A DNA stretch of 64,000 bases from Chitinophagales bacterium (lineage in GTDB: Bacteria > Bacteroidota > Bacteroidia > Chitinophagales > LD1), in NCBI GenBank assembly GCA_044226285.1, contig JBGAHI010000004.1, positions 154,731-218,730 of the forward strand, in the 5' to 3' direction. Of this stretch, positions 33,230 to 63,098 are shown in pieces; position 1 is the first letter of the stretch; each line of letters opens with the position of its first letter. The position numbers were made by a program, and so were the translations under genes. A model generated the notes under the pieces. It was not told the origin of the DNA and did no database searches. It saw only the letters and a list, made by a program, of their open reading frames with translations.

Positions 33230-33242
33230 TTAAACCATTTTC

Positions 33243-34532: not shown

Positions 34533-34533
34533 C

Positions 34534-35322
34534 ATGCGATTAACCATCATTGGAGCCGGCAACCTAGGCTCATCTATTGCCAAAGGAATAGTATCGAAAG
34601 CCATATTCGCTGAAATTTGTGTAACTCGAAGAAATACTCAATCGGTGACATATCTGAAAGACAAAGGCATCAAAGTATTATCCGACAATAAAGAAGCTGC
34701 CCGCAATAGCGATGTTATTCTGTTAGCTGTGAAACCACATCAGGTTAAAGCCATTGCTGAAGAAATTGCAAACGAAGTGGGTAATGCCTTAATTATCTCA
34801 GTGATTACAGGCGTAAGTCTTTCCGAACTCAACAGTTACTTCGGCTCAACAAAACGCATTATCCGTGCTATGCCTAACACTGCCATTGCGCAATCTGAAT
34901 CGCTTACATGCATTGCCGTGAACGAAAATGTAACCGCAGACGACAAGCAACTCTCCACAACTATTTTTTCTTCGTTAGGCGAATTAGTGTTTATCGAAGA
35001 GAAATTAATGGATGCTGCTACGGTGCTTGGGGCCTGTGGAATTGCTTATGTTATGCGCTTTATGCGAGCGATGATGCAAGGGGGAATTCAAATCGGATTT
35101 GATTCAAAAACATCACTTCACATTGTAACGCAAGTATTAAAAGGAGCTGCAGTTATGCTGCAAAACGAACACTCCCATCCGGAGAGTGAAATTGATAAAG
35201 TAACAACCCCTCAAGGTTGTACCATTGCCGGATTAAACGAAATGGAACATCAAGGCTTTAGTTCTGCGCTGATAAAGGGCATCAACACTTCGTTTCAGGC
35301 CATTGACGGAATAAAAAAATAA
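34534..35322 (+). CDS. proC: Pyrroline-5-carboxylate reductase
   Basis: Rossmann N-terminus IIGAGNLGSSIA and the C-terminal block VTTPQGCTIAGL. Confidence 0.85.
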   Translation: MRLTIIGAGNLGSSIAKGIVSKAIFAEICVTRRNTQSVTYLKDKGIKVLSDNKEAARNSDVILLAVKPHQVKAIAEEIANEVGNALIISVITGVSLSELNSYFGSTKRIIRAMPNTAIAQSESLTCIAVNENVTADDKQLSTTIFSSLGELVFIEEKLMDAATVLGACGIAYVMRFMRAMMQGGIQIGFDSKTSLHIVTQVLKGAAVMLQNEHSHPESEIDKVTTPQGCTIAGLNEMEHQGFSSALIKGINTSFQAIDGIKK

Positions 35323-42976: not shown

Positions 42977-43075
42977 GGTGGTAGGCTTTGTTTGTTTTGA
43001 CACAAGAACTATTCCAGTTTTTTGTAGATTACTTATCATTTATGCGGAAATCGTTTACTTGCAAGATAATCATGC

Positions 43076-44703: not shown

Positions 44704-47700
44704 TTACTTCAGTACATTTAATCGCTTGCTAATGCGTTGATCATCTACTCGGAAGGAAACTACATAGGTAGCTGCCGATAAATCTCCTGTTTGAATGAAA
44801 TACGTATTAAATCCTTTTTTCATTTCGATACTTTCAGATTTAATAAACTTACCGGTTACCTCATAAACATCAATAACCGCTGTTTGATCTCTTGCAACAA
44901 ATAAATCTATAATTGCTTTTTCTTTTGCAGGATTTGGAACAAAATCGCCTACAGCAGTTTTCCCTTCGCTGATGATGGTCGCTGTAATAATATTACTGTA
45001 TTCAAAAGCTACATTTCCATTGTCGATTTGTTTCAATCGATAGTAGTAACGAATATTCGGTTGAGCAGTTTTGTCATCATACACATATTCTTGTCGTACT
45101 GTAGAGTTATCATGCCCTTGAACCCAAGCAATTTTAGTGAATTCGGTACCGTTTGTACTACGTTCTACCTCAAATCCTGCATTGTTCAATTCCAATGCTG
45201 TAGACCAATCTAATCGTATATAACTATTCTCGATGGCCGTTGCTGTGAAATCAATCAACTTAACAGGCAAACCAGTTCCCGGAGAAGAGAAACCATATCC
45301 GCCCGTTCCTCCTGAAAATGATGTGATACCATTAAATTGTGCGTAAGTAACTCCGTTTTCTGTTCCTGAAGCACTTTCAGTTAAAGTGATATTCGAAAAG
45401 TTATTGAAACTATTTCCATCGATAGAACTGATTACTGATGCAAAAGATGAACCCACCGTTTTAAACCATCTAAATGCTGTTTTAGAGGCTGTTGCTGAAT
45501 ATGGTGCCCATGCTGCATCTCTTGCATTTAATGCCGCTGTTTTCTCAGCCGGATCATAGAAGAATTTCACATCCACTGATGTTGAAATTGAACCACTTGT
45601 AACATTCACATCCCAATAGCGTTTCATCAAATATGACCCATGCTCATATCCGGCTTTTGAAGTATTAATATGATCTATTGTGCTACCTGCTACTGTAATA
45701 TCTACTTGTGCAGTGAACGAATTCCCATTTTTGCGAATAGCAAACGTCCAATCGTCAGGGGAAGAAGCCTTAGCATAATATGTCCATCCGCCATCAGTAC
45801 ATTGCTCTACTAAGGTGGTTACAGAACTTGTTGGCAAGACCACTAAAGCAGCTGCACTTTTAACAGTTACAGTTGTAGAGGCATCATTCGTACATGAATA
45901 GCTATTTTGAACTGTAACAGTATATATAGTAGTAGTTGTAGGATTTACAGTACCGCTTGCTACGGCACCTAATCCAGAACTCCATGCATAAGAGGTAATT
46001 GTTCCTGCCCCTGCTGTTGCGTTCGCATCTAATAGTACATTATCGCCAGAACATGCAGTATTTGGAGTTGCAGTTGGGGAAATAACAGGTACTGCACGGA
46101 TAGTAAGTGTAACAGCCACTCGCGTTGGACTTATACAACCAGAGGTAGTGTTTCTTCCTTCGGCATAATAAGTATAAGTACCGGGGAGTGGATTAGGGCC
46201 AGAGCCATCCGTTACTTCATTAAACGCAAGCGAACCTGTTTTTACCAATGTTCCGCCTGATGAAGCATCATACCAATCTGCAGTTTCGCCTGCCCCAACT
46301 GTTACCGTTAAATTTGGAACTGAGGCTTTATAACAAGCCTCTTTATTTCCGCCCGATGTCGGTACTGTTGCGCTAGAATTGTTAGTTAACACTACATCAT
46401 CCGTAGAGGCTGTACATGCTCCATTAGTAATTGTCCAACGCAATGTTGCTGATGTGCCTAGTGTAACACCTGATACTCCGGAATTGTTAGCAGATGGTGT
46501 AGTGATTGTAGCCGAACCACTCACTAAAGACCAAGATCCTGTTCCTATTACAGGCGAATTACCGGCCAATGTAAAGGAAGAGTTATTACAATTAGATTGG
46601 TCGGTTCCTGCGGCAGCTGTTGTAGGAACAGCATCACCACCTACCGTTACACTTGCTTCTACTGCAGGGCTACATGTGCCCGTTACGCGTGCATAATAGG
46701 TGCCCGGTCCCGCTGTTAATGTGGTTCCTGTGCCTAAGTTTGTGCCCGTTCCGCCTGAACCTGTCCACCACGTTACTGTGGCGCCAGCTCCGGCTACGCC
46801 ATTCGCTGTTAATGTTGTTGTAGCATTCGCACATATTGGACTTGCTGCTGCGGTAGCTGACGTAATCGCAGGGATTGCTGTTGAACCTACCGTTACACTT
46901 GCTTCTACTGCAGGGCTACATGTCCCAGTTACTCGAGCATAATACGTACCCGGTGGTCGATTTGTTAATGTGGTTCCTGTGCCTAAGTTTGTGCCCGTTC
47001 CTCCTGAACCTGTCCACCACGTTACTGTGGCGCCAGCTCCGGCTACGCCATTCGCGGTTAATGTTGTTGTAGCATTCGCACATATTGGACTTGCCGCTGC
47101 CGTAGCTGAGGTAATGGCAGGTATCGCATTAACCGTTACCGTATTAGTCGCACAAGCTCCTGCAGAACAAGATGTTCCAGTGCCGGGGTTATACCTGGCA
47201 TAATATGTAGTTGTAGTTGATGGAGCCGTAATAGTAGCTGCAACAGTAGTTGAGCCGGCTCCAGGCGAAGACGTGGCGACAAGCGTACCCCCACAACTTC
47301 CACTGTAAAATTGAACTGTTCCATTCATATTTACGGCTGTTGGAAAATTGGCGGTTAGCGTTATTGTTGCAGGAACTGCATTGGCGCAATAACTTGTTGA
47401 ACTAATAGAAAGAGATGAAGGATCTTCGTTCCAGCGGTTGGTTATTGTAGCGGTTGAGCCTGTTACATCGCATCCATTGTTTACTACTCGGTATCTTGTT
47501 CTATCGGGATCTCCATTACTCGTACCCACTTTTTTAGGGAAACAACAAGTACCAGAGGAGGTGCCGCTAACCCAAGCATTCCAAGCACCATTATTGCTAC
47601 CCCAATCCCAATTTACCGTTCCGCTTGCTGTTCCACTTGCAGTTACTGCTGTGGTGAAATCCCCAGAAGAATTACAAAAATTTACTGCTGTTGTAGAAAT

Positions 47701-48492
47701 AGTACCCACTGTTGGAGTTGTATGCTTATAGGTCAAAACAGTAGATGTTGTACTCCATGTACAACTGCTTCTGTTAGCGTAAACACGAATTGTTGGGGCA
47801 GTAGTTCCTGAAAACCACGCTGACTGATTAGAGGAAAATGAACTTGATGTCGCACCTGCACCACCAGAAATAACAGCAGCAGACCAAGCGCTTGATTGCG
47901 AACCATTTGTTACTGTAAAATCATACCAAACATTTGCTGCAAGGACAACATCCCTATATTGCCCTGATGCAACACCTAATGTTGATGCAGAACAACCAGA
48001 CGGAACAGAACCTGCTGCACCAGTACTTCCCAACTGACCTCCAGAAAGAGCAGTTGTTGGTAGCGCAAAGGTGTATGATTGAGTACAATTATCGGTTCCT
48101 CCACATCCGGTATGTCTAAAATTCCCAACATTAATACCGTTTGCATATATTGTAACACTTCCGGTACTATTCCAGTCATCTCCATCCCTATCTTGCACTA
48201 CAATAGTATAGTTACCACACATCCAAGGCATTGTTCCCAATGCTCTACCTGTAACCGAATAAGCAGTGTTTGCTCCATTATAACATTGTGAAGGATCGCA
48301 GAACCAACCAATAACGCTCTTTCCATTGGGATCTGTTAAATAAAACTGATTTTCACCAGACCAGCTGGGCCAATTAATATCTGCTGTAAACGTAACTTGA
48401 GCGTTTATAGCTTTCAACCCAAATAGCACGAACAGTATAGTCAATATAAGTACATTCCTGTTTCTATTAAATTTCGAGTAATTCTTTTCCAT
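44704..48492 (-). CDS. Giant T9SS-secreted surface protein (~1262 aa), paralogue of 37517-42976 with a different N-terminal head
   Basis: The likely start is [32 protein letters not shown]. The C-terminal ~640 aa (from GGDAVPTT to KRLNVLK) aligns residue for residue with the other giant protein. It has two near-identical 83-aa repeats and a T9SS tail. Confidence 0.85.
46640..47130. repeat. Two tandem 249-bp near-identical coding repeats in the 1262-aa adhesin gene
   Basis: [54 protein letters not shown]...[20 protein letters not shown] occurs twice. The nucleotide copies differ at only a few positions (compare 46721-46880 with 46970-47130). Confidence 0.85.
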
Positions 48493-48818
48493 GCCTAAAA
48501 ATGTTAATAAGTTCACTAAAGTAGGAATTATTTGTCAAAAAGCGTGCCTTTTATGTTTAAAAAATAAGTTGCAACCATATAACATTGTATATCAATGAGT
48601 TAAATTTGAAAAAATGAAAACAAGTTAGTAAAAATGAATGAGATTGTAGACTTTTAAGAACAGCGTTTTTTACTAAAAAGTACAGTTTTATTAGATAGTG
48701 GATAATACCGTTTAGCTACTTCATACTTTTTCTGCTATAAAATTTGGTTGATATGATACGAATTAATCGGTAGAGAAAAAAAAGTATGGCTGAATTTTAC
48801 ATTTGAAAAAGATTAAAC

Positions 48819-49253: not shown

Positions 49254-49411
49254 CTACTATTTATGTCGTTCGTTTTTATATGAAAAAGAAGACTGGGAAA
49301 CCAAGCGGTCATGGTATGAAAAACAATTTGCTTGGGACTATTATGAATGTGATGAAGTTGGTATAAGGCAACTGTTTTTCTTTCCTTTCTTTTAAAAGTA
49401 TTTTTTTGTCT

Positions 49412-50248
49412 ATGAATGAGGAGTCGAACCATCCAAAACCAGTTCAAATAATAACAGCTGATCCATTCACTTTAGCACAATATTGGAAGCTAATGAAAAA
49501 GCATCGTAGTTTGATTTGGGTATTTGCACTGCAAGAAATCAGAACTATGTATGCGCAAACATACTTAGGCATCGTTTGGGCTGTGGTTCGTCCGTTGGTT
49601 TCGCTTATAATTTTCACGATTATTTTTAGTTACTTTCTAAAGGTGAAAACAGCTACACCCTATTATCTGTTCGCTTTTACAGGGATGATTGCATGGAATC
49701 TGTTCTCTCAATTAACTACTCAAGCTTCTTCGGCCATACTTCAAAAACAATATCTTATACGAAAACTATTTTTCCCAAAAATGGTGCTTTTTCTTTCAAA
49801 AGTCATCATTGTTTTAATAGAATTTGGGGTATCGCTCTCCCTTTTACTGGTATTTCTACTTTTTGACAATGTGCCATTTGGTATACATCTCTTGGCTTTA
49901 CCTGCATTTTTATTGTTAGACATTATTTTAGGTTTAACTATTGCATTGTGGATGAGCTCATTTACCATTCGTTTTAGAGATTTAAACCAACTATTACCCA
50001 CTATTATTGGAATTGGTATTTGGGTAACGCCAGTGTTCTTTCCGTCAACAATTATTCCGGAGAAATACAACTTCTTTGTATTCGCTAATCCCATGGGAGG
50101 GATAATAAAGGGTTTCCGATATGCACTTTTAGGCGAACCATTCCCGGAACTTGCCTATTGGTGGGCAATTCTTGTTGTTATTGTGTTGTTTTTTGTAGGT
50201 GTTTGGTATTTTATCCAAAAAGAAGACAATATCGTTGACTATGTATAG
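49412..50248 (+). CDS. ABC-2 type transporter permease (Wzm/TagG/KpsM-like polysaccharide exporter subunit)
   Basis: LIWVFALQEIRTMYAQTYLGIVWAVVRPL is the typical ABC-2 N-terminal block, and there are 6 TM helices. The ATG at 49412 is preferred over the TTG at 49406. No ATPase gene is adjacent. Confidence 0.8.
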   Translation: MNEESNHPKPVQIITADPFTLAQYWKLMKKHRSLIWVFALQEIRTMYAQTYLGIVWAVVRPLVSLIIFTIIFSYFLKVKTATPYYLFAFTGMIAWNLFSQLTTQASSAILQKQYLIRKLFFPKMVLFLSKVIIVLIEFGVSLSLLLVFLLFDNVPFGIHLLALPAFLLLDIILGLTIALWMSSFTIRFRDLNQLLPTIIGIGIWVTPVFFPSTIIPEKYNFFVFANPMGGIIKGFRYALLGEPFPELAYWWAILVVIVLFFVGVWYFIQKEDNIVDYV

Positions 50249-50311: not shown

Positions 50312-51193
50312 ATGCAAGTAGAATACCAAATCGGAGATCAAACTATCTTCCTAAACCTAAAAGGTGAGGTAGTACAAGGTGAAGAAAAAACTCTTCTTCA
50401 GGATGACGATAATTTATTGGCACATACCCCATCGGGAGAAACCGGATTTATTGTCGCTCCTTTTTTAACTGCTAAAGAGTTTGATAGTATTTATTCGGGA
50501 ATAACGTCAATGGTAAAGGCTTTGATTCGAAAAGTAAAAGGGGAAATAGATGATGATTTTTGTCTTGAACATTATCACCACTATGTAACAGATAGTGAAC
50601 ACTTACAAATAGCAAAACTAATACAGTATGGATGGAATGTAAGTGAATTCCCTATCGATTTTAGAAAAGTGGAGGAGCGAATTTCTACCATTATTGGAAT
50701 TGATGTTACCGCTGAGGCTCACCACTTAAACCCTGAATCGTTTATATCAGGATTATATGCGAACGACAAAAAAGTACAAATCTTTAACTTAAGGATAGTG
50801 AGACCCCAAAAACTACTCGACAGTAATCCGCCACACCGAGATGTATGGATTGATCGATTGAGAAATGCTATAAATATTTATTGCCCTATTTGTGGAAGCA
50901 CAGCTAAGAGTTCGCTTCCGCTCATTCCTTATAGTCATCATTTCAAAGAATCGGAAATCGAAAGAACTTCTAATGGAGCAACCCTAAACGGCACAAGTTA
51001 TTCTGTTCCATGTGTTACACTTTTACAAGGTAAGCCGCCACATCTAATACGACCTAATCCAAAACAAAATGAACTATTACTTTTTTCTCCATATCTAATT
51101 CATGGAGGTGGTTATAACTTTGAGGAAGAAGTAACCAGAGTTTCGCTTGAGATTAGGTTTTGGCGTTCGCCTGATATCTTACAACCCAAGTGA
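50312..51193 (+). CDS. Fe(II)/2-oxoglutarate oxygenase, PhyH-like
   Basis: H-x-D in PPHRDVW, SLPLIPYSHHF (like the vipGSH block), a distal His in YLIHGGGYN and Arg in RVSLEIRF. Confidence 0.6.
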   Translation: MQVEYQIGDQTIFLNLKGEVVQGEEKTLLQDDDNLLAHTPSGETGFIVAPFLTAKEFDSIYSGITSMVKALIRKVKGEIDDDFCLEHYHHYVTDSEHLQIAKLIQYGWNVSEFPIDFRKVEERISTIIGIDVTAEAHHLNPESFISGLYANDKKVQIFNLRIVRPQKLLDSNPPHRDVWIDRLRNAINIYCPICGSTAKSSLPLIPYSHHFKESEIERTSNGATLNGTSYSVPCVTLLQGKPPHLIRPNPKQNELLLFSPYLIHGGGYNFEEEVTRVSLEIRFWRSPDILQPK

Positions 51194-52126
51194 CGCACGC
51201 ACCTTATATCGGCCTTGATGCAGTAGTTTTCGTTGTGCTTTAAACAAAGAAAAATACAGGTACCCATAGATTACCAATACTACCAATACACTAAAGTTTA
51301 CCATTGCCAAAAAAAAATTGGTGTAGCAGCTGGAAGTATAATTCACAATATTTATAACTGCGCCAGTAAAGAGTATGAACAGCATAGAAGACGGAAGTAC
51401 AAATTGCCTTACTTTTTTTGACGAATATGTATATATCAGTTTTAATGCCCAAAGCCCTTGAATAATTAGTTGATGACCGGAAACCCCTGCATATCGGCTA
51501 TTGTGGGAAACAGAAACCCAATCTGTAGTATTAGCATGTGCATGTGCAATTCCGTCAATAAACACAATAGGGGGAAGAGATGAAGAAGTGTTGAATAACG
51601 CTCTTTTAAAAAGTCGAAATGGACTTCCCTGCATTGATGTTCCTAGGCATAAATGAAAGGCATGAAGTGCCATCCGACTGGCTACATTTCGCCAAAAGGA
51701 ATGCTTTCGGAGGACCGGGGTACCATAAATAATATCAGCATCTTGGAATTGTTGTTTCTCGATAAGCTTAGGGATATCTGAAGGAGAAAACTGAAGATCG
51801 TCATCTAATGTAATTATGAACTCCCCTTGTGCATGTTGAATACCACAAAAAATGGCAGTATGTTGACCTACGTTTGTTTGAAGCCGAACTGCTTTTATGT
51901 TTCCAATAGTTTTTGAAATGGTTTGAATATTCTCCCATGTATTGTCTGGGCTAGCATCGTCAACGATTATGATTTCAAAAGAATTTGTTGTCCGTGAAAG
52001 AACATCATAGACTTGTTGGTAGATACTATTCACAACGCATCCACTTTTGTATGCAGGTATAATTACAGAATATCCAATTATAGAATGGTGAAGCATTGTG
52101 TTAAAACACTTGATTTTATATAGCAA
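51179..52126 (-). CDS. GT2 polyprenyl-phosphate glycosyltransferase (ArnC/GtrB/DPM1-like)
   Basis: YSVIIPAYK...EIIIVDDASPDNT...ITLDDDLQ followed by two C-terminal TM helices, the architecture of undecaprenyl-phosphate sugar transferases. An alternative start (MLHHSII) lies at 52096. Confidence 0.75.
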   Translation of the reverse strand: MLYKIKCFNTMLHHSIIGYSVIIPAYKSGCVVNSIYQQVYDVLSRTTNSFEIIIVDDASPDNTWENIQTISKTIGNIKAVRLQTNVGQHTAIFCGIQHAQGEFIITLDDDLQFSPSDIPKLIEKQQFQDADIIYGTPVLRKHSFWRNVASRMALHAFHLCLGTSMQGSPFRLFKRALFNTSSSLPPIVFIDGIAHAHANTTDWVSVSHNSRYAGVSGHQLIIQGLWALKLIYTYSSKKVRQFVLPSSMLFILFTGAVINIVNYTSSCYTNFFLAMVNFSVLVVLVIYGYLYFSLFKAQRKLLHQGRYKVRASLGL

Positions 52127-52285: not shown

Positions 52286-52996
52286 ATGATAATCTTCTCA
52301 ACTTTTGAAAGTAATTACTTTAAGTTAAACGTAGGAAGAGCTGTTTGTGATGCGCCAACCGATGTACTTGACATCATAAAAGAAGCTAAGAAAAAACAGT
52401 TTAATATCGTGCGTATCGAGTCGAAGTATAAAATCGATATGGAAGAATTATTCTACATCAGAACAATTAACGACTACAAACACAGTTACAAAACATCCGA
52501 TAATCCAATTGGACTGAATGTTAGAAAAATTCAAACAGAAGAAGATGCTATTTTTTTTGAAAAGGAGCTATACAACAATTATTTAGGCGATAGTTTAGGT
52601 TACATTAATCACCCTTCAGTGAGAGCCAAATATCCTTATTTAAACAAAGAATTAGAAGCTAAATGTTATGCCTCTTTCTTTCGAACCAACTTTACGCCCT
52701 CTAATGACAACAAAGGCACACTTCTCTTTTCACAAAATGAAGACTGTGTTGGCGGGTATATCTACGAAATTGTTGGCGATGGTGTTTATACTTCTGTTGC
52801 TTTTGTATTAGAAAAGTATAGAAAATCCGGCTTTTTTAAACAGTTTCATTTATACAGAGAAAACCTCTTTTTCGGAATGGGTATAAAGTACGGCTTTCAC
52901 GGTGGAAGAAGCGACAATATTTCTGTGAACAACTTTTATCTAGAAGAAGGCTATGAAATTATTGAACAAAGGCATATCTATGTTATGGCTCTCTAA
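52286..52996 (+). CDS. GNAT-like N-acetyltransferase (WecD/TDP-fucosamine acetyltransferase-like)
   Basis: The N-terminal FESNYFKLNVGR resembles the WecD W-x-x-x-FF-G-x-N start. The C-terminal half has a GNAT-like VAFVLEKYRKSGFFKQF block. The assignment is tentative. Confidence 0.45.
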   Translation: MIIFSTFESNYFKLNVGRAVCDAPTDVLDIIKEAKKKQFNIVRIESKYKIDMEELFYIRTINDYKHSYKTSDNPIGLNVRKIQTEEDAIFFEKELYNNYLGDSLGYINHPSVRAKYPYLNKELEAKCYASFFRTNFTPSNDNKGTLLFSQNEDCVGGYIYEIVGDGVYTSVAFVLEKYRKSGFFKQFHLYRENLFFGMGIKYGFHGGRSDNISVNNFYLEEGYEIIEQRHIYVMAL

Positions 52997-53082: not shown

Positions 53083-53814
53083 ATGAATCCAAAAGAACCT
53101 TTTTTTTACATTACAAAAAAGTGGTATACCGGCTCTGCACCTGCATTTTACAACAATAGTGAATTCCCTTTGACTAAACTCTTGGAGGATAATGCATCGA
53201 TAATCATTGAAGAGATTACACATTTTTACCAGACAAAACCTGAGCAATTAACTACTAATTTTGTACCCTACAATGTAGATGTAAAAGGATGGGATACGAT
53301 GGTATTATACTCGTCAGGCATTCTAAATAAACATTTTTTGCCTTTTTTACCAAAGACATGGGCACTAATAAAAGATTACCCTGGCTTGAGTTTGGCAATG
53401 GTATCTGTTCTTAAACCTGGGGTCAGGCTTAAGGCTCATTTTGGAGATACAGATGCGATGGTTCGAAATCATTTGGGTGTTGTAATTCCAGAACCTTACC
53501 CTAAAGTTGGAATGCGCATAAAAGCAGAGGAAAGGGCATGGGAAGTGGGTAAAGTATTGTCTTTTTGTGTTGTTAATAGGCATTACGCATGGAATTACTC
53601 TGATAAACCTCGTTTAATCTTAATGGTAGACTTTATTAAACCAGAGTTCCTTCACCGTAAAAAAGAAATAGAGGGGAAAATATTAGCTGCCGAAGGCATG
53701 AAACTTTTCGCCACCAAATTTCCCATAACAAAAAAGCTACCAAGATGGGTAACCATGTTTCTTTTGAATGTATTGGGGGTAGTCGCAAATTGGTATGTGA
53801 AGTTTTTTAAGTAA
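53083..53814 (+). CDS. Aspartyl/asparaginyl beta-hydroxylase family Fe(II)/2OG oxygenase (LpxO-like) with C-terminal TM helix
   Basis: LKPGVRLKAHFGDTDAMVRNHLGVVIPE matches the H.G...R.HL.L..P core of PF05118. The C-terminal hydrophobic segment is WVTMFLLNVLGVVANWYV. Confidence 0.7.
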   Translation: MNPKEPFFYITKKWYTGSAPAFYNNSEFPLTKLLEDNASIIIEEITHFYQTKPEQLTTNFVPYNVDVKGWDTMVLYSSGILNKHFLPFLPKTWALIKDYPGLSLAMVSVLKPGVRLKAHFGDTDAMVRNHLGVVIPEPYPKVGMRIKAEERAWEVGKVLSFCVVNRHYAWNYSDKPRLILMVDFIKPEFLHRKKEIEGKILAAEGMKLFATKFPITKKLPRWVTMFLLNVLGVVANWYVKFFK

Positions 53815-56035: not shown

Positions 56036-57106
56036 ATGAATAACCCTATTAAAAAGTCAAAAACAATACTGCTCGTATTTTTTTCAATATTGCTTGTAGT
56101 ATTTCTGACTGGAGAGATAGGGTTACGGCTAAAGGGATTTAAAATGATGAGACTCACCACCCAACCCAGAAGCCTCTTAACTGCTGATTCTGTTTCTGGA
56201 TGGAAACTAACTGAAGGAACATACACTATATGTTTTAATGACTCCAATTCTTTTTTTGTTGCCACTGTAAATCAAAAAGGGGATCGAATAACTTCTATGA
56301 ATGCGCAAAGCTATGATACGGGCAAAGTAACTACTATACAAATTTACGGTTGTTCTTGCACTTTTGGATTCTCGGTACCAGATAGTTCTACGCAAAGTTT
56401 TATATTACAAAGTAAACTTCCTAATTGTCGGATCCAAAATAAAGGAGTACCTGGATATGGACTTGCGCAAATGTTTTTGCATTTACAACAAGTGGTATCT
56501 AGCGGTGACACTCCTCAAGTAGCCGTTTTTAATTACGCAAATTTTCAAGAAAGACGAACGGCTCTTAGTACTGAATGGGGCAGTGTTATTTCCCTTTTAG
56601 TTGAAGCTGAACCGTCCGATAAAAAAGGCGCCAACAAATCAGGTAGACTTACGCTACCATACTATGATATAAAGCAAGATTCGCTTTGGTTACACTACTC
56701 TGATTTTAGTGAGTTAGAGCATCTTTGTCCGCTCGTAAATTACTCCTCTTTACTATTGCTTTCAAACATACAATATGTACAATATAAAGACCAAGAAAAA
56801 ACAAACGCTTTTCATGAAACAGCAACTAAAACAGCTTTTGAAATCATGAAGTATTGTAAAAGCCATAGAATTACACCAATTTTTGCAAGCTTAACAGAAT
56901 CAGAAGACAGTTCACAAATAGATGATATTTCATTAAAACTCAAGCAATCAGGGTATTTAACGCTTAATTACGGCATTACTTTTGATGACAATAGATATAA
57001 TAAACCATTATCAAGAGATAAATCACATCCTAATTCAACAGCACACGCAGTTTATGCCGATAAACTATACGCTTACCTAATGGAAAAAAAATTAATCCTT
57101 AAATAA
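56036..57106 (+). CDS. Membrane-anchored SGNH/GDSL-type hydrolase or acyltransferase
   Basis: N-terminal TM helix, block I-like IYGCSCTFG, and block V-like DKSHPNSTAH (D-x-x-H). Confidence 0.5.
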   Translation: MNNPIKKSKTILLVFFSILLVVFLTGEIGLRLKGFKMMRLTTQPRSLLTADSVSGWKLTEGTYTICFNDSNSFFVATVNQKGDRITSMNAQSYDTGKVTTIQIYGCSCTFGFSVPDSSTQSFILQSKLPNCRIQNKGVPGYGLAQMFLHLQQVVSSGDTPQVAVFNYANFQERRTALSTEWGSVISLLVEAEPSDKKGANKSGRLTLPYYDIKQDSLWLHYSDFSELEHLCPLVNYSSLLLLSNIQYVQYKDQEKTNAFHETATKTAFEIMKYCKSHRITPIFASLTESEDSSQIDDISLKLKQSGYLTLNYGITFDDNRYNKPLSRDKSHPNSTAHAVYADKLYAYLMEKKLILK

Positions 57107-57159
57107 CACGCACATTTTTTTTGAAAAGATTTTGTTTTAAAAAAAATCCATGTTTACAA

Positions 57160-59601
57160 ATGACCACATTAGCTATTCTTAAAAAAAAAATGGTCCTACA
57201 TATAAAAAAAATGTGGTGGCTATTTACTTTTTTATGCGTTTGGGTGTGTATAGCTTCTTACCCTACTCAGCTAACGCATAAAGTTAACATAAATCAATCC
57301 GATGCTTTAGAATACCAGGTTTGTGCATACAACTTAGTGAAGTATGGAGTATTCCCAAAACTTAAAGTACATGGTCAACTTTCTGACTATGCTATTGATA
57401 GCAATACCAATATGCCACTTAGTAGCAGAATCTTTACAGCGCTTATTTTAAAACACCCCCCAATAGATGATTTTTCAAAACCCCCTCTCTATTCCTTGCT
57501 ACTTGCATTGGTCTACTTTCTAGCAGGCACAAATTTTAACAATGCCGTTTTTTTCCAACTGATTTTAGTATCGCTTACTACCGCATTACAACCATATCTA
57601 GGTTGGCGCTTAATGGGAAAAAAGGGCGTTGTTATAGGAATCATTTCTGCTTACTTTTATTTTCAAAGTTCCATAGACGAAATCCATCTCCTCTACCCCC
57701 ACTTTTTAGTGCAACTTATTTTATTAGTAGTTATTATAATTAACGAAAACCAACACCCCAAAAGATGGCAAATACTACTTACTGGATTTCTCTTAGGATG
57801 CTGTGTACTAACCAATGGAAATACGATTTTTATTCCATTCATGTATTTTTTATATCAATTGCTCCTTTACATTAAAAAGAAGATTTCAGGTGAATTTTTC
57901 CAGGGGTGGTTTGTTTTTTTATGTGTATTAGCGCCCTGGGTAGTTTTCGCCAATTTAGAATTATCAAAAACGAAAAATGAGCGAACGATTTGGAAACAGA
58001 ATCTGTGGAAGGGTGTAACTATTGAAAAATATAACACTACCTTTTTACTTGATAAAAGCCACCCCACCTTACAAGACAGTATTATTATTTTGAATTGTGT
58101 AAGAAACTTGTACAGTAAATTTGGAGAAGATGGATTTGTACTTATTTCAAAACAACCTTTTGGCGATGAAATATTAGGCACCCACAATGAATTTTGTGAA
58201 GATGGAAGATACCACCCTGAATGGAGATTCTTATCCAACTCCTACCACAACCGTCAAAACACAGGTCGTTCTACTCTCGTAAAAATTATTCTATTTTATA
58301 AGGACAACCCCTCTTTTATTTTAAAAAACATAACCGGTAAATTTTCAGGGACTACCAGTGGGTATTCCTTCTTATATTATCTTTCGGGGATATTTCTCTT
58401 ACTAATTCCCCTTTACAACAAGCTTCAAAAGTATTCCTTTTTGGGAGTAGCAGCAGTTATTTTGAGCGCTTATTTTTTATTGCCTTTTGAGTATTATATC
58501 GTTCTTTTTTTAGTAGGAATAGTAGCAGGGAATCTCTTTGTTTTTAGTGGAAAATACGAAATGGATATATCTCCTATCTGGATTTTTGCAATTACTAATA
58601 CTGTGTTTATTACTATATTTTTTTTGGGGGAAGCAAGATATGTAGCCATTCTAAATCAATTTATACTTATTATTTTGTTTGCATTAACTGCAATTTTTAT
58701 AAAACCTTTTTTTGTGCATGATTTTAGTTTTTATAAAACCAAAGGGGCTTTGCTTTATAAAAAATACATTCCGAAATTTAGGCTTTTTGAAGTAGTACTT
58801 ATGTCGGGTTATTTTATAGTAGCCTTTGCATTTGCGAATGATGCAATTGTAGTATCTAAAGTACTTACATCCATGGTTTATTACTTTGCAATCTTGTGCT
58901 ATATCGCATCGGTATACATGTTAAATTCATTTGCTGATTATGATTTAGATAAAGTTAATCCTCGCTTACAATATTTGAGCAGCTTTAAAAAAACGAGTTA
59001 TTTGTTGTGGACAGTTATTTTCTTATTACTGAGCTTATGTATTACTTTTTTCCTTAACAGAAAAATTGCCGTTTTTTTTTCCTTTTCGTACCTCTTATGG
59101 TATTTGTATTATTGCCCCCCTTTCCGGTATAAAAACTCGATATTAATTGGAACAGTTATCCATTTTGTTTCGGGCATATTACATTTTCAAATCGGATTTG
59201 AAGTTGCACAAACCGCAGGCTATTTATCCTTTATGATTTCTTTGTTTTTTGCGACACTACTCAGTATGGGGCATTTAAACCACGAGCTGCTCGATTTAGA
59301 TGCAGACCAAAAGTTTGGCATTAAAAACACTGCCATTACCTTTGGCAGAAAAAATGTTATTTGCCTCTTCTACGCACTATTTTTTCTTTCGCAAATATAC
59401 CTGTTGCTTATGTTCAAATGGAAATTTATTGACAAGTATGAACTAATACCGTTTCTTTATTTGCCGGTTATTGCTACCCTTTTTGTTGTGGGGGAAAAGC
59501 AAAAGCTCTTGCAACCGAAATACATTCAAAAATTATTCAGAATACTTTTGCTCATCAGTTCGATAGTACTCATCGCGCTAAAACTTATTGCTGTTCAATA
59601 G
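57160..59601 (+). CDS. Fusion protein: ArnT/PMT_2-type GT-C glycosyltransferase domain plus C-terminal UbiA-family prenyl/phosphoribosyl transferase domain
   Basis: The N-terminal part has the first-loop acidic motif DALEYQVCAYNLVKYG and SKPPLYSLLLALVYFLAG (the KPPL block of the ArnT family). The C-terminal part has NSFADYDLD (NxxxDxxxD) and LDLDADQKFGIKNTAITFG (second Asp-rich UbiA motif). The start is ambiguous: TTG 57121, or ATG at 57160, 57190 or 57211. Confidence 0.7.
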   Translation: MTTLAILKKKMVLHIKKMWWLFTFLCVWVCIASYPTQLTHKVNINQSDALEYQVCAYNLVKYGVFPKLKVHGQLSDYAIDSNTNMPLSSRIFTALILKHPPIDDFSKPPLYSLLLALVYFLAGTNFNNAVFFQLILVSLTTALQPYLGWRLMGKKGVVIGIISAYFYFQSSIDEIHLLYPHFLVQLILLVVIIINENQHPKRWQILLTGFLLGCCVLTNGNTIFIPFMYFLYQLLLYIKKKISGEFFQGWFVFLCVLAPWVVFANLELSKTKNERTIWKQNLWKGVTIEKYNTTFLLDKSHPTLQDSIIILNCVRNLYSKFGEDGFVLISKQPFGDEILGTHNEFCEDGRYHPEWRFLSNSYHNRQNTGRSTLVKIILFYKDNPSFILKNITGKFSGTTSGYSFLYYLSGIFLLLIPLYNKLQKYSFLGVAAVILSAYFLLPFEYYIVLFLVGIVAGNLFVFSGKYEMDISPIWIFAITNTVFITIFFLGEARYVAILNQFILIILFALTAIFIKPFFVHDFSFYKTKGALLYKKYIPKFRLFEVVLMSGYFIVAFAFANDAIVVSKVLTSMVYYFAILCYIASVYMLNSFADYDLDKVNPRLQYLSSFKKTSYLLWTVIFLLLSLCITFFLNRKIAVFFSFSYLLWYLYYCPPFRYKNSILIGTVIHFVSGILHFQIGFEVAQTAGYLSFMISLFFATLLSMGHLNHELLDLDADQKFGIKNTAITFGRKNVICLFYALFFLSQIYLLLMFKWKFIDKYELIPFLYLPVIATLFVVGEKQKLLQPKYIQKLFRILLLISSIVLIALKLIAVQ

Positions 59602-60433
59602 GTTTTGTACACTGCAAAACGCAGTAATCAATAATCCCTTTTTCGACAAGTAATTTTAACGACACACAGGCCTTATAATGATTATACAACAGTTCACTAT
59701 CTTCTTTTTTGATTTGTTCCATTTTCGTTAATGCACCATAATATGATTTTTCGATACCGGGCATAACAAAATTGAGAATGGAGGTTACTTCGATATTATC
59801 GAATCCTGCTTTTAATAATCTCTTCGCAGGCAGATCGATATAATGATTGACCGCCCATCCTTGCTGAAAAGCATTAAGGGCTGACATTGTTTCGGCATCC
59901 GTAGGTTTCAAAACTTCTATATAATCGATTATGAGCAACTTCCCTCCTGGTTTTAACACTCTAAACATTTCGACAAGAAATTGTTCCTTCGATTCAGAGT
60001 GACACATACTCTCAATCGCATAGGCAACATCTACACTATTGCTTTCCAGCGAAGTATTGGTATAGTCTTCTTCTAAAAAAACAATGTTGTTCAGCGGTTT
60101 TGCTTTTTGTTGTGCAAATGCAATTTGACTTCGAGAAATATTGATTCCGATGAGATGATGTTGTGGAAATTGTTCTTTCAAAAAGAACAAAGTTCCACCT
60201 ATTCCGCAACCTGCATCTACTACAGTTTGTGCATCGCTATTCCCTAAGCTCAATTGTGCGGCAATAAAGCTGTTCATTCTTAGCTTTGCTTGGTCATTAT
60301 CTTCAACTGAATCACTAAAATAACCCATGTGCATAGCTAAAGAATTAGGATTGTGTCCTTGCATAAATCGTTCTAGCCAGCATACATCATAATAGTCTAG
60401 AATTTGTTGTGTATATTTTTCTGCTTTGTTCAT
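59585..60433 (-). CDS. Class I SAM-dependent methyltransferase
   Basis: Motif I VVDAGCGIGGT and post-I/II blocks LIGINIS and LKPGGKLLIIDY. The YYD...W...F N-terminal block is as in lipid and sterol-type methyltransferases. It lies 6 nt downstream of the radical SAM gene. Confidence 0.8.
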   Translation of the reverse strand: MNKAEKYTQQILDYYDVCWLERFMQGHNPNSLAMHMGYFSDSVEDNDQAKLRMNSFIAAQLSLGNSDAQTVVDAGCGIGGTLFFLKEQFPQHHLIGINISRSQIAFAQQKAKPLNNIVFLEEDYTNTSLESNSVDVAYAIESMCHSESKEQFLVEMFRVLKPGGKLLIIDYIEVLKPTDAETMSALNAFQQGWAVNHYIDLPAKRLLKAGFDNIEVTSILNFVMPGIEKSYYGALTKMEQIKKEDSELLYNHYKACVSLKLLVEKGIIDYCVLQCTKPIEQQ

Positions 60434-60439
60434 TTTCGG

Positions 60440-62029
60440 TTATGATATTGCTGTTTGCTTTGTTGCCGTAAGCGTTAGCGAAATAATTTTTTCCTTATTC
60501 TTAACTGGATCATATTCACTTTTCAGCTTCTGCATAAAAGTAAAATTATCGCTTCCCTGTTTTATTTTCTTCGGTTTAAAGAAACGAAGAAGTTTTTCGG
60601 AATAAAACCCAAGAATTCCTATTCCTCCAATAAAGTTGAGTTTTACTTCGTGAAAACTTCGTGTATTGTATAATCGCTTAAGAATATATGTCGGGCGTAG
60701 ATAAAATGAAAATGTCATTTTTCTGTAGAGTTTTTCAACATCTTCAGTGCTTAAGCTATCAATATTAATAATAGGTGTTGATCCATAGTATTTATCCCAA
60801 TCATAGGTCAAAATTTTGTCTTCTCTAATGGTCTTATTGAATACATCATTCCCCGGGAAAGGTGTAAGTATCGAAACAGAGATGAGATCAGGATCGAGTT
60901 TTTTCAATAAGCGAATATTATCATTTACAACTTCATGCGTATCGCCTTCGTTGCCAACAATCATACATACCCTCGACTCGAGTTTTGCTTTTTTTGTCCA
61001 AAGCATTGCATTAAATACCTTCTCCACCTCAACTCCTTTTTGAATATTATCGAGAATTTTCTGGTCGAAATTTTCAACCCCATACATGATTCCCCAACAC
61101 CCTGCTTTCTTCATTAATAAAAGCATTTCTTCATCCACAATATCCACCCGTGCAAAACATTGCCATTGAACGTCTAATGGTTTTTCAATCAGCAAATTGC
61201 AAAAATCGGTAACCCGTTGTTTACTCACAGTAAACACATCATCCATTATGGCCACGTCTTTAACACCGTATTTTTCGTTTAAATATTTGAATTCGTTGTA
61301 TAAACTTTCTGCACTTCGATATGTCCACATTTTCCCAACTGTACGTCTACAAAAGCTGCACGACCAAGGGCATCCTCGACTTGTAACAATCATCATAGCC
61401 GGCAAACGTTTAAAATTTCCAATAATTGGGCGATAGGAATTTATATCAATCAAATCATAGGCCGGCATAGGTAGATCGTCTAGCGCTTTATTTCGAGAAC
61501 GCGACTTGTTTCGAATAAATTCTACAACACCATTGGTATTCTTCTTATATGCTAGTCCATTGATATTCTCGAAGGGTTGTCCCTGAAGAAGTTCAAGCAA
61601 AGTATCTTCCCCCTCTCCGATTGCCACACAATCAACCGATTCATTACTAAGTGCTTCATCGGGCACAAATGAAGCATGTGAACCCCCTAAAACAAAAACT
61701 GTATCAGGATAATAGAATTTACAGAGGGCAGCCAATCGATACGACACATTTATTGTTGGGGTAGTTGTAGTTACGCCAATCACTTTTATTGAACTAAATT
61801 TTTCAACGTAATTTTTTATAAACCAAAGCTCAAACTCTAAATCGGTATCTTTAAAATAATAATTGCAATCCACTATTTGAACGGAAAAATGGTGTTCCCT
61901 AACATATGCGGCTAATGCTGTTAACCCCAATGGGACATCTATCGTTCTTTGTCCATAGTAAATACCTTTAGGAAAAAAGAATGGTGGGTTAATCAACAAA
62001 CAATCCAATATGATTTTATCATTTTCCAT
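60440..62029 (-). CDS. B12-binding-domain radical SAM protein (class B, COG1032-type)
   Basis: CxxxCxxC cluster in SRGCPWSCSFCRR. The N-terminal ~150 aa has a Rossmann-like cobalamin-binding-domain pattern (VIGVTTTTP...VLGGSHAS). Confidence 0.8.
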   Translation of the reverse strand: MENDKIILDCLLINPPFFFPKGIYYGQRTIDVPLGLTALAAYVREHHFSVQIVDCNYYFKDTDLEFELWFIKNYVEKFSSIKVIGVTTTTPTINVSYRLAALCKFYYPDTVFVLGGSHASFVPDEALSNESVDCVAIGEGEDTLLELLQGQPFENINGLAYKKNTNGVVEFIRNKSRSRNKALDDLPMPAYDLIDINSYRPIIGNFKRLPAMMIVTSRGCPWSCSFCRRTVGKMWTYRSAESLYNEFKYLNEKYGVKDVAIMDDVFTVSKQRVTDFCNLLIEKPLDVQWQCFARVDIVDEEMLLLMKKAGCWGIMYGVENFDQKILDNIQKGVEVEKVFNAMLWTKKAKLESRVCMIVGNEGDTHEVVNDNIRLLKKLDPDLISVSILTPFPGNDVFNKTIREDKILTYDWDKYYGSTPIINIDSLSTEDVEKLYRKMTFSFYLRPTYILKRLYNTRSFHEVKLNFIGGIGILGFYSEKLLRFFKPKKIKQGSDNFTFMQKLKSEYDPVKNKEKIISLTLTATKQTAIS

Positions 62030-62222
62030 AGCTCAACATTTTAAAAATACCCATTCCAGTAGAAAAATCTTTAACCCCCTTTAATGTAATTTATCATTAC
62101 TGTTTGCTAACGCAATGTTTTTGCGCCTACAAACATTATAATCAAGCATTTGTCCCAAATATGAATTATTGTATTCACTTTATCAAACTTTTTCTTGATT
62201 TTTGCAGTGTTTACAAACACAA

Positions 62223-63098
62223 ATGAAATCAAGGGTATTTATTGACGGCTTGTTGGAAAACAAGTTACAAAAAAACGGTTTTGTTAAAATTCCTTTTTGG
62301 TCAGAAGACATTGTTGAGAAAGTACGCAATACCTTTGAGTCCGAATTCTATGAAAAGCATTCCTCCTCTAAAAAATTTAACACCACCTACGAGACGGTAA
62401 ACCTAACTTTAATTGACCGCGTTAAAGCTTATTTAGAACCTCTTTTTATAGAAAACGCAAAAAAATTATTTGCGGATATGCGACCTATTAGTGCCAGCTT
62501 TTTGGTAAAGGAGCCCGGAGTTAACTCGGAATCACCTCTCCATCAAGATGCTAGTTTTGTGGATGAACCCGAGCACTGTTCTGTATCGGTATGGGTAGCC
62601 CTTCAAGATTGCAATGCACAAAACAGTTGCTTACAGTTTATACCGGGTAGTCATAAATTATTTACGGGCATTCGATTTATTCCATATACGAATCAAACCG
62701 TTGATGAGCATAAACATCGACTAATGCCATACCTTACTCAACACACGATTAAGGCAGGAGAGGCATTTGTGTTCTACAACGCAACGTTACATGCTTCGGG
62801 AAATAATCTAAGCGATACTCCACGATTAGCGGCAGTTATGGGTTTTTACAGCGCAAGTACACTATTGAGCCTATACAAAAAGAACGAATCCAACAACCAA
62901 ATCGACAGATTTAGCATATCAGTTGAACAATTGAAACAAATCAACGATGTTTTTCTTCCAAGTGAGGAACAACGTATAGAGTCGTTAGCTTTACCTTTGA
63001 ATATAACATCGAAGGAGGTAAGCCGTTTTCTAAAAGAAGAATTCAGCTTACCGAAACGAATTTTAGCTTGGGCAAACAAATATATAAACCCTAATTAA
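62223..63098 (+). CDS. Phytanoyl-CoA dioxygenase (PhyH) family Fe(II)/2OG oxygenase
   Basis: SPLHQDASFVD (HxD), VWVALQD, LQFIPGSHK, and a distal His in ATLHASGNN. The ATG at 62223 is preferred over the TTG at 62202. Confidence 0.75.
   Translation: MKSRVFIDGLLENKLQKNGFVKIPFWSEDIVEKVRNTFESEFYEKHSSSKKFNTTYETVNLTLIDRVKAYLEPLFIENAKKLFADMRPISASFLVKEPGVNSESPLHQDASFVDEPEHCSVSVWVALQDCNAQNSCLQFIPGSHKLFTGIRFIPYTNQTVDEHKHRLMPYLTQHTIKAGEAFVFYNATLHASGNNLSDTPRLAAVMGFYSASTLLSLYKKNESNNQIDRFSISVEQLKQINDVFLPSEEQRIESLALPLNITSKEVSRFLKEEFSLPKRILAWANKYINPN

Follow-up and report, generated by a model that had tools for sequence, protein, structure and literature searches.

Enzymes of the UbiA superfamily and glycosyltransferases of the GT-C type are known as partners from systems in which they are encoded separately. 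In mycobacteria, the decaprenyl-phosphoribose synthase (DPPRS) works together with the Emb/Aft enzymes (PMC10994848), and in Citrobacter youngae a PPPRS (HAD-UbiA), a MATE flippase and a GT136 GT-C enzyme are separate proteins (PMC11127046). In the 64,000-nucleotide stretch of a Chitinophagales contig analyzed here (JBGAHI010000004.1; the window), the two kinds of domain occur in one polypeptide, encoded by an open reading frame (ORF) at 57160..59601 on the plus strand. Both domains belong to known superfamilies, and their combination in one protein is rare. That a GT-C module is fused to a UbiA domain can be stated with high confidence. Beyond this, the fusion protein is read in mechanistic outline as a bifunctional inner-membrane enzyme acting in an uncharacterised pathway for envelope lipids or glycoconjugates, with a probability of roughly 0.4.

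The ORF and its parts are arranged as follows (aa, amino acid positions):

57160..59601, plus strand: entire fusion ORF, with 813 aa counted from the ATG and a TAG stop codon at 59599-59601
57160..58707, plus strand, aa 1-516: N-terminal domain, putative divergent ArnT/PMT_2-type GT-C with about 12 membrane crossings, both ends predicted to be cytoplasmic
58708..58782, plus strand, aa 517-541: Lys/Arg-rich linker joining both domains, predicted to be cytoplasmic
58783..59598, plus strand, aa 542-813 (272 aa): UbiA-superfamily prenyltransferase domain with nine transmembrane helices, placed in the AfUbiA/DGGGPS-like branch

According to the ORF listing of the window, the reading frame contains no internal stop codon, and an alternative TTG start at 57121 would give an 826-aa version. 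Every motif quoted in the first-pass annotation, an earlier reading of the DNA by a model, was recovered in its place in the translation. A search of 5.8 billion proteins revealed four full-length homologs with 38-43% identity in ENA, Logan and JGI assemblies, and an exhaustive hidden Markov model (HMM) search of 1.84 billion 50%-identity representatives yielded five clusters of full-length fusions, adding P0027 and P0028. The two-domain homologs P0002-P0005, P0027 and P0028, all 38-43% identical, are located on unrelated contigs. Furthermore, copies with at least 90% identity are present in independent JGI, Logan and ENA assemblies (P0172, P0173). In an alignment of five fusions, the junction is unbroken with gaps of 1-4 columns at most, and the motifs of the UbiA domain as well as those of the N-terminal domain are invariant. 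The linker carries on average 5.2 lysine and arginine residues (K+R) per sequence and shows only small gaps across all fusions. In neighbour-joining trees, the seven fused proteins form one clade for either domain with largely congruent branching, as expected if the domains fused once and the proteins then diverged. Due to these distant homologs, the gap-poor junction, the independent near-copies and the congruent domain trees, a frameshift or misassembly is very unlikely and the fusion is a genuine conserved protein.

The C-terminal domain matches the Pfam family PF01040 at aa 554-755 with 61.4 bits, compared to a gathering cut-off of 34.2, and P0027 exceeds this cut-off as well. It contains both Asp-rich motifs:

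58924-58950, plus strand, aa 589-597: first Asp-rich motif NSFADYDLD with N589, D593 and D597, in the cytoplasmic loop after UbiA transmembrane helix 2
59269-59319, plus strand, aa 704-720: second Asp-rich motif region GHLNHELLDLDADQKFG, in the cytoplasmic loop after UbiA transmembrane helix 6

The first motif aligns to N68/D72/D76 of AfUbiA (PMC4106721). The second, with ...HELLDLDADQKFG at aa 708-720, includes D712 and D716 together with H705/N707/H708/E709 and aligns to DYEFDKKAG of AfUbiA. N589, D593, D597, D712 and D716 are invariant in the five aligned fusions, and among 27 family members the asparagine and the last aspartate of the first motif and both aspartates of the second are invariant. 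Residues H668, H705, H708, E709 and K658 are invariant and specific to the family. The AlphaFold2 model of the UbiA domain, with a predicted local distance difference test value (pLDDT) of about 90, shows the nine-helix fold of two four-helix bundles. In a Foldseek comparison, template modelling scores (TM-scores) of 0.71-0.78 to AfUbiA (4tq3-6), 0.72 to 6m31/7bpu and 0.71 to 4od4 were obtained, and the DPPRS of Mycobacterium tuberculosis (8j8j) ranked 17th with 0.63. A profile of the 27-sequence family ranked the structures in the PDB in a similar manner:

AfUbiA: 65 bits
Methanocaldococcus jannaschii DGGGP synthase: 55 bits
chlorophyll synthase: 25 bits
ApUbiA: 21 bits
M. tuberculosis DPPRS Rv3806c (8j8j): 19 bits, first motif region only
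UBIAD1: 15 bits

Among the NCBIfam models, the generic 'prenyltransferase' PRK12884 is matched by 24 of the 27 family members and ChlG by 22. The DGGGPS models are matched weakly (best E 1e-13), PRK12882 by 15/27 and PRK12883 by 6/27, and the DPPRS model PRK12324 by 4/27, with the fusion itself reaching 13 bits against a cut-off of 207. The domain is not placed among the DGGGP synthases themselves: the matches to their models stay below the equivalog level, and no PcrB/GGGPS gene was found in any fetched cluster. With respect to the chemistry, Gao et al. described that the phosphoribosyltransferase (PRTase) binds the pyrophosphate of phosphoribosyl pyrophosphate (PRPP) via one Mg2+ and a K/R cluster, whereas classical UbiA enzymes have an acidic two-Mg2+ pocket (PMC10994848). 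In the fusion family both Asp-rich motifs are strictly kept, which fits the two-Mg2+ type that uses prenyl diphosphates (PMC4106721, PMC10994848). On the basis of the profiles and the model, the UbiA domain is assigned to the branch whose characterised members prenylate oxygen nucleophiles, outside the defined equivalog families. One relative within the UbiA clade, P0088 (497 aa), represents a different fusion with a 216-aa hydrophobic, Ala/Gly-rich N-terminal extension, for which no Pfam match was found.

The N-terminal half yielded no match in direct scans against Pfam and NCBIfam, and its assignment to the GT-C enzymes was made via its relatives. The following features were distinguished:

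57301-57315, plus strand, aa 48-52: DALEY, acidic motif with candidate catalytic or base residues, located in the first extracytoplasmic loop
57478-57492, plus strand, aa 107-111: KPPLY, motif at the periplasmic end of the following helix, candidate for binding the lipid phosphate
57958..58365, plus strand, aa 267-402: family-specific soluble domain, predicted to be periplasmic, a 135-aa insert between the transmembrane bundles
58144-58233, plus strand, aa 329-358: core motif of the soluble domain, ISKQPFGDEILGTHNEFCEDGRYHPEWRFL, consensus ISKQPFGDEILGxHNE..DG..HPEWR

The fusion itself does not reach the gathering threshold of PMT_2 (PF13231) and gives no match at all, and relatives of the domain match the whole profile with 18-23 bits, below the cut-off of 26.1; one stand-alone homolog matches PMT_2 at E 3.3e-6. 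A profile built from the domain and two stand-alone homologs reaches three PF13231 proteins among the 5.8e9 sequences (E 2e-6). A shallow seq­uence profile of 7 members found no match in the PDB, and with 21 sequences the best PDB match is ArnT (5ezm, E 0.002), where the KPP of the family is located on the 'EKPP' of ArnT and the LTKG block is aligned as well. The lysine of this E-K-P-P motif reportedly binds undecaprenyl-phosphate in the ArnT structure. A comparison by hhalign with a small set of PMT_2 proteins resulted in a probability of 98.7% (E 4.6e-16, 188 columns) and paired DxxEY with D(E)RDY, KPPLY with RPPLY and LTKG with LTR. For the AlphaFold2 model of the domain (pLDDT 81.6, predicted TM-score 0.85), the top nine PDB matches in Foldseek are all GT-C enzymes, namely ArnT, STT3, PglB and Pmt1/2 with ArnT as the best, at probabilities of 0.84-1.00 but with E-values of 1.5e-3 and weaker and TM-scores of 0.3-0.4; AftB, PimE and Pmt4 follow a few ranks below. 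On account of the profile reach, the top match to ArnT, the hhalign result and the Foldseek ranking, the domain is classified from sequence and model as a divergent ArnT/PMT_2-type GT-C.

The candidate functional residues are conserved. In the family alignment of 21 sequences, D48 and E51 occur in at least 90% of the members, P109 is invariant, P108 and Y111 reach at least 90% and K107 stays below 90%; among the fusions and the two closest stand-alone relatives, K107, P108, P109 and Y111 are all invariant. In the soluble domain, Q332, H342-N343-E344, D348-G349 and H352-P353-E354-W355-R356 are invariant; a metal or an acceptor might be bound here. The soluble domain has no sequence match in Pfam or the PDB, and no counterpart is known for the second transmembrane bundle together with this insert. 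Two relatives of the N-terminal domain, P0103 and P0144, carry an N-terminal Laminin_G_3 (ConA-like lectin) domain in a placement that resembles the carbohydrate-binding modules of EmbC or GT136 enzymes. In P0103 the lectin domain is predicted to be extracytoplasmic, on the same side as the DxxEY loop. These lectin-bearing relatives hint at a carbohydrate acceptor.

The membrane topology was derived from hydropathy, the AlphaFold2 helices and K+R counts averaged over the five fusions (positive-inside rule). K+R-rich and K+R-poor short loops alternate, with one near-neutral loop (h8-h9) and with aa 109-147 taken as one crossing. This results in the following assignment:

predicted cytoplasmic: the N-terminus, the linker (5.2 K+R) and the UbiA loops with the Asp motifs
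predicted periplasmic: the D48 loop, the KPP motif, the YPHF loop and the soluble domain aa 267-402

The predicted orientation of the UbiA domain agrees with that of AfUbiA (PMC4106721). From the alternation of K+R-rich and K+R-poor loops, the GT-C and UbiA active sites are predicted to lie on opposite faces of the membrane. The first-pass annotation had asked whether the sites face compatible sides, and the predicted placement fits an intermediate that is made inside and used outside.

In related loci, the two domains are also encoded by separate genes. In L001, a homolog of the N-terminal domain (E 1e-29) is located directly upstream of a stand-alone UbiA gene whose product is 44% identical to the C-terminal domain. 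L016 contains the closest stand-alone relative of the N-terminal domain and, at a distance of about 4 kb, genes for a radical S-adenosylmethionine (radical-SAM) enzyme, a methyltransferase and a UbiA protein. In L015, a radical-SAM gene is followed by a UbiA gene that overlaps the gene of a different, PMT_2-like GT-C. The HMM of the N-terminal domain does not pick up the membrane proteins that adjoin UbiA in L011 and L015 and finds no relative in L002; only the protein of L015 is PMT_2-like by Pfam, and the partners in L011 and L002 have no family assignment. Adjacency in L001, the shared cluster in L016 and the overlapping genes in L015 argue for a functional coupling of the domains. In L016, the N-domain relative is flanked by two enzymes of the WelO5 family of 2-oxoglutarate (2OG)-dependent oxygenases (L016:3023-4027 and L016:5607-6464), one with the HxG motif typical of halogenases (SHCGY) and one with HxE. 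Near the N-domain homolog of L004, a GT2 gene and a gene for an LPG_synthase_TM protein are located.

Scanning the GTDB species-representative genomes with the alignment and with a single protein revealed no relative. In public sources the fusion is unnamed or labelled only '4-hydroxybenzoate polyprenyltransferase', and the literature searched contains no GT-C/UbiA fusion or such a cluster, only the pentofuranose and arabinan systems with separate proteins. What the first-pass annotation had proposed could be substantiated in part: the single polypeptide (one continuous ORF with conserved full-length homologs), the ArnT-like GT-C (98.7% in hhalign, ArnT as best PDB match by profile and by Foldseek), the UbiA-family C-terminus with both Asp-rich motifs (61.4 bits in Pfam, PDB profile, Foldseek) and the rarity of the fusion (5 clusters among 1.84e9 representatives, none described in the literature searched). 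The two-part layout was kept and its sizes were revised, from about 560 and 260 aa to a GT-C of aa 1-516, a linker of aa 517-541 and a UbiA domain of aa 542-813 (272 aa).

Around the fusion gene, the window contains a cluster of putative modification and export genes:

49406..50248, plus strand: permease of the ABC-2 type (Wzm/TagG-like; ABC, ATP-binding cassette), probable 5' edge of the cluster
50312-51193, plus strand: 2OG-oxygenase-like ORF without Pfam family, weak match to TIGR04324 'sporadic carbohydrate cluster 2OG-Fe(II) oxygenase'
51179..52126, minus strand: GT2 glycosyltransferase, best model ArnC-type undecaprenyl-phosphate sugar transferase (92 bits, sub-threshold)
52286-52996, plus strand: cluster-adjacent ORF without Pfam family
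53083..53814, plus strand: Asp/Asn beta-hydroxylase family, OlsC/LpxO-like lipid hydroxylase, homologs in L002 and L004
53819..55792, minus strand: polytopic membrane protein of 657 aa that may belong to the cluster
56036..57106, plus strand: membrane-anchored SGNH/GDSL-like protein directly upstream of the fusion, weak and far sub-threshold match to LA_2486
59585..60433, minus strand: class-I SAM-dependent methyltransferase, CMAS/SMT-like, convergent with the fusion and overlapping its 3' end by 17 nucleotides (nt)
60440..62029, minus strand: B12-binding radical-SAM enzyme, best sub-threshold models HpnJ and BchE, best PDB match AprD4
62202..63098, plus strand: PhyH-family Fe(II)/2OG oxygenase with HxD motif, first of a PhyH array syntenic with L008 and L009
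63147..64000, plus strand: second PhyH-family oxygenase, truncated where the window stops and orthologous to the double-PhyH gene of L008/L009
43127-44464, plus strand: cluster-adjacent 445-aa ORF without Pfam family, homolog in L002

The methyltransferase is the most constant neighbour of the UbiA clade of the fusion. Its orthologs (38-51% identity) adjoin the UbiA gene in L001, L002, L008 and L009, and a methyltransferase of the same Pfam profile adjoins the UbiA gene of L016. The convergent 3' overlap between fusion and methyltransferase genes is conserved, with 17 nt in the window (59585-59601) and 4 nt in L008 (L008:6394-6397) and L009 (L009:12400-12403). Orthologs of the B12 radical-SAM enzyme (58-63% identical) are present in L001 and L002, orthologs of the ABC-2 permease in L009 (55% identical) and L001 (40%), and GDSL genes flank the N-domain homologs of L004 and L005 too. 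The ArnC-like GT2 is a candidate for the maker of a polyprenyl-phosphate-sugar donor and the sole such candidate in the window. For the 657-aa membrane protein, no Pfam or NCBIfam family was found, and hhalign showed no relation to PMT_2 or to the family of the N-terminal domain.

Synteny with the window was found for all other fusion loci, namely L008, L009/L010 and a JGI contig. They carry a short-chain dehydrogenase/reductase (SDR) gene immediately upstream of the fusion, the same convergent methyltransferase, 10-12 PhyH paralogs, and ABC-2 and ABC ATPase genes, and no other recognisable glycosyltransferase. The SDR is retinol-dehydrogenase-like (PRK06197-like); a DprE2-like SDR was considered and rejected, DprE2 not being among the best matches listed. 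In the PhyH arrays of the L008 and L009 clusters (L008:1-16397 and L009:1-22403), two proteins are double-PhyH (about 576 and 638 aa), and no lipid-priming enzyme was recognised in these clusters either. The solved relatives of the neighbours point in two directions, to sugar tailoring (RebM-like or glucose O-methyltransferases, AprD4, EvdO2, SnoK/N) and to lipid or isoprenoid chemistry (PHYH, OlsC, HpnJ-like, retinol-dehydrogenase-like SDR).

Just upstream of the cluster in the window, two cargo proteins of the type IX secretion system with 1840 and 1270 aa are encoded at 37517-43039 and 44704-48516, both on the minus strand and both with CHU_C-associated Ig-like repeats and Por_Secre_tail domains, features by which the genome can be recognised as one of Bacteroidota; a Por_Secre_tail protein is located inside the fusion clusters of L009 and of the JGI contig as well. 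Further upstream, a housekeeping block on the plus strand (29844-35322) encodes a bifunctional aspartokinase/homoserine dehydrogenase, homoserine kinase, threonine synthase and pyrroline-5-carboxylate reductase, which indicates that the region is chromosomal.

Gene fusions are among the strongest computational signs of a shared pathway. In the preferred outline, the UbiA domain would use a prenyl diphosphate at the cytoplasmic face to transfer an isoprenoid chain onto an oxygen nucleophile of a pathway intermediate, which would yield a membrane-anchored species. This species would be tailored by the CMAS/SMT-like methyltransferase, the B12 radical-SAM enzyme and the PhyH-type oxygenases, in the relatives also by the SDR, and would be carried across the membrane by the ABC-2 transporter. 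On the periplasmic side, the GT-C domain would act on the exported lipid or glycan, using a polyprenyl-phosphate-linked donor for the transfer. In the window this donor could come from the ArnC-like GT2, and in the clusters without other glycosyltransferases the GT-C domain would handle the UbiA-made lipid itself. The substrates and the order of the steps are inferred, as is a hand-over of the UbiA product, which might serve the GT-C domain as donor or as acceptor.

Several observations weigh against this outline. The TM-scores of the GT-C half are low (0.3-0.4), its second transmembrane bundle is modelled at moderate confidence only, and the topology is a hand-made positive-inside analysis in which aa 109-147 are counted as one crossing. 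The UbiA domain stays below the cut-off of every NCBIfam equivalog, including DGGGPS, and for this reason 'O-prenylation' is only extrapolated from DGGGP synthase and chlorophyll synthase. N-domain homologs in L004 and L005 have no UbiA gene within 10 kb, and the UbiA homologs in L002, L011 and L013 have no detectable N-domain relative; as each domain is found without the other, the two activities are separable. Furthermore, the neighbouring enzymes resemble modifiers of lipids or isoprenoids as much as modifiers of sugars.

A more specific version of the pathway is tentative and rather unlikely. It assumes that the UbiA enzyme would prime a lipid-linked intermediate, replacing a phosphoglycosyl transferase or a GtrB-like GT2, and that the resulting prenyl ether or polyprenyl-phosphate-linked unit would be remodelled by the PhyH, radical-SAM and methyltransferase enzymes and exported by the ABC-2 transporter, with the GT-C domain transferring or receiving it outside. 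If true, Bacteroidota and relatives would possess an envelope pathway not known so far, defined by the fusion together with its split-gene counterparts. Its product would be a new class of prenylated or oxidised glycolipids or a new glycan decoration, with synthesis and use of the donor hard-wired in one polypeptide.

Alternatively, the fusion could serve co-localisation or stoichiometric assembly only, with no product hand-off, or the GT-C-like domain could be a non-catalytic lipid-binding or scaffold module. The independence of both domains in many clusters, the score of the N-terminal domain below the PMT_2 threshold in Pfam and the lack of a known counterpart for its second half and periplasmic domain all agree with such a role. 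It is nevertheless considered unlikely, since the candidate catalytic residues are kept (D48/E51 in at least 90% and P109 in all of the 21 sequences, K107 in all fusions and the two closest stand-alone relatives), D48, E51, K107 and P109 align with functional motifs of ArnT/PMT_2, and the fact that adjacency or overlap recurs with two different GT-C subfamilies points to a functional link and not to chance.

An explanation closer to the known systems, judged quite improbable, assumes a DPPRS/PPPRS-like UbiA that makes a polyprenyl-phosphate-pentose from PRPP, with the fused GT-C transferring the pentose after flipping. Here, the known set of UbiA-type PPPRS, flippase and GT-C as separate proteins (PMC11127046) would be the precedent, and the predicted opposite faces of the active sites, the clusters L008 and L009 without another enzyme able to make a lipid-linked donor, the SDR upstream of the other fusions as a possible epimerase, the neighbours resembling sugar-tailoring enzymes (RebM-like/glucose O-methyltransferases, AprD4, EvdO2, SnoK/N) and the weak matches to DPPRS models (19 bits for 8j8j, PRK12324 in 4/27) can be read in its favour. 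The analogy with decaprenyl-phosphoribose synthase had been drawn in the first-pass annotation, and it fails in each of the comparisons made. In the profile ranking, Rv3806c reaches 19 bits, with an alignment limited to the surroundings of the first motif, compared to 65 bits for AfUbiA and 55 for DGGGPS; Foldseek places 8j8j 17th with 0.63 compared to 0.71-0.78 for AfUbiA; and the NCBIfam model for DPPRS yields 13 bits against the cut-off of 207. The strictly kept second Asp-rich motif is typical of the two-Mg2+ pocket and not of the PRPP pocket with its K/R cluster (PMC10994848). Pathway partners are likewise missing: among the genes with a Pfam or NCBIfam assignment in the window, L001, L002, L008 and L009, none was recognised as DprE1, a DprE2-like SDR, a HAD/PAP2 phosphoribose phosphatase or a MATE/SMR flippase, several cluster genes being without assignment. 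The second proposal of the first-pass annotation, a putative link of prenylation and glycosylation in one pathway, fits better than the decaprenyl-phosphoribose analogy.

It is very unlikely that the locus is instead a secondary-metabolite (isoprenoid) cluster, in which the UbiA protein would be a small-molecule prenyltransferase or terpene cyclase and its product would be tailored by oxygenases, halogenase-like enzymes, methyltransferases and radical-SAM enzymes and exported by the ABC transporter. Such a cluster would be in line with the arrays of 10-12 PhyH oxygenases, the WelO5-family genes of L016 (one with a halogenase-type HxG), the retinol-dehydrogenase-like SDR, the SMT/CMAS-like methyltransferases, the radical-SAM enzyme with HpnJ as best model and the absence of nucleotide-sugar genes from L008 and L009. 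It offers, however, no obvious small-molecule role for a periplasm-facing GT-C module, and it is opposed by the lectin domains on N-domain relatives, by the ArnC-like GT2, OlsC/LpxO-like hydroxylase and Wzm-type permease of the window, which are typical of envelope glycoconjugate loci, and by the weak 'sporadic carbohydrate cluster' oxygenase matches. That the long ORF is an artefact in which a frameshift or assembly error joined two adjacent genes, as the split adjacent versions in L001 and L015 might suggest, can be practically dismissed, given seven fused proteins of 38-43% identity from different samples with small junction gaps at most, copies of at least 90% identity from independent JGI, Logan and ENA assemblies, the monophyly of the fused forms in both domain trees and the conserved K/R-rich linker.

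If the preferred reading of a bifunctional envelope enzyme holds, the fusion ties a cytoplasm-facing isoprenoid transfer to a periplasm-facing transfer of lipid-linked sugar. It draws attention to a conserved, uncharacterised Bacteroidota cluster, in which up to a dozen PhyH oxygenases accompany an ABC-2 exporter, a methyltransferase and a B12 radical-SAM enzyme and which probably builds an unusual envelope lipid or glycoconjugate. As one gene with two mutable active sites, it is a tractable entry to the product and to the hand-over of lipid intermediates across the membrane. The partnership of UbiA and GT-C also exists outside the known arabinan and pentofuranose systems, and its chemistry is probably different.

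Compared with the systems in which a GtrB/ArnC-type GT2, a flippase and a GT-C act together, the window shows a similar proximity of an ArnC-like GT2 to an ArnT-like domain, whereas this GT2 is absent from the fusion clusters of L008 and L009 and no GtrA/SMR flippase was seen. We know of no periplasmic modification system of the GtrB/ArnC type that includes a UbiA enzyme. The pentofuranose systems share the combination of a cytoplasmic-face UbiA with a periplasmic-face GT-C in one pathway and the setting of an ABC-transporter-dependent glycan locus. There, however, the proteins are separate and the UbiA part is fused to a phosphatase, whereas the UbiA domain of the fusion lies outside the PRTase branch, its GT-C is ArnT/PMT_2-like, and a phosphatase, an epimerase pair and a MATE/SMR flippase were not recognised in the clusters. 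With AfUbiA and DGGGP synthase, the UbiA domain has the nine-helix fold in common, including N-x3-D-x3-D after transmembrane helix 2 and D-x3-D after helix 6 in cytoplasmic loops; it differs in an identity of only about 18-20%, in the additional invariant residues specific to its family, and in being fused to or encoded beside a GT-C in clusters without a GGGP synthase gene. The GT-C domain resembles ArnT (GT83; Cupriavidus metallidurans, 5ezm/5f15) and the PMT_2 proteins in its polytopic fold, the acidic first extracytoplasmic loop, the (K/R)PP at the start of the next helix and the LT(K/R)G block. ArnT has a C-terminal periplasmic domain, whereas the fusion carries its 135-aa soluble domain between the transmembrane bundles, and its GT-C is predicted to have its C-terminus back on the cytoplasmic side, joined there to the UbiA domain.

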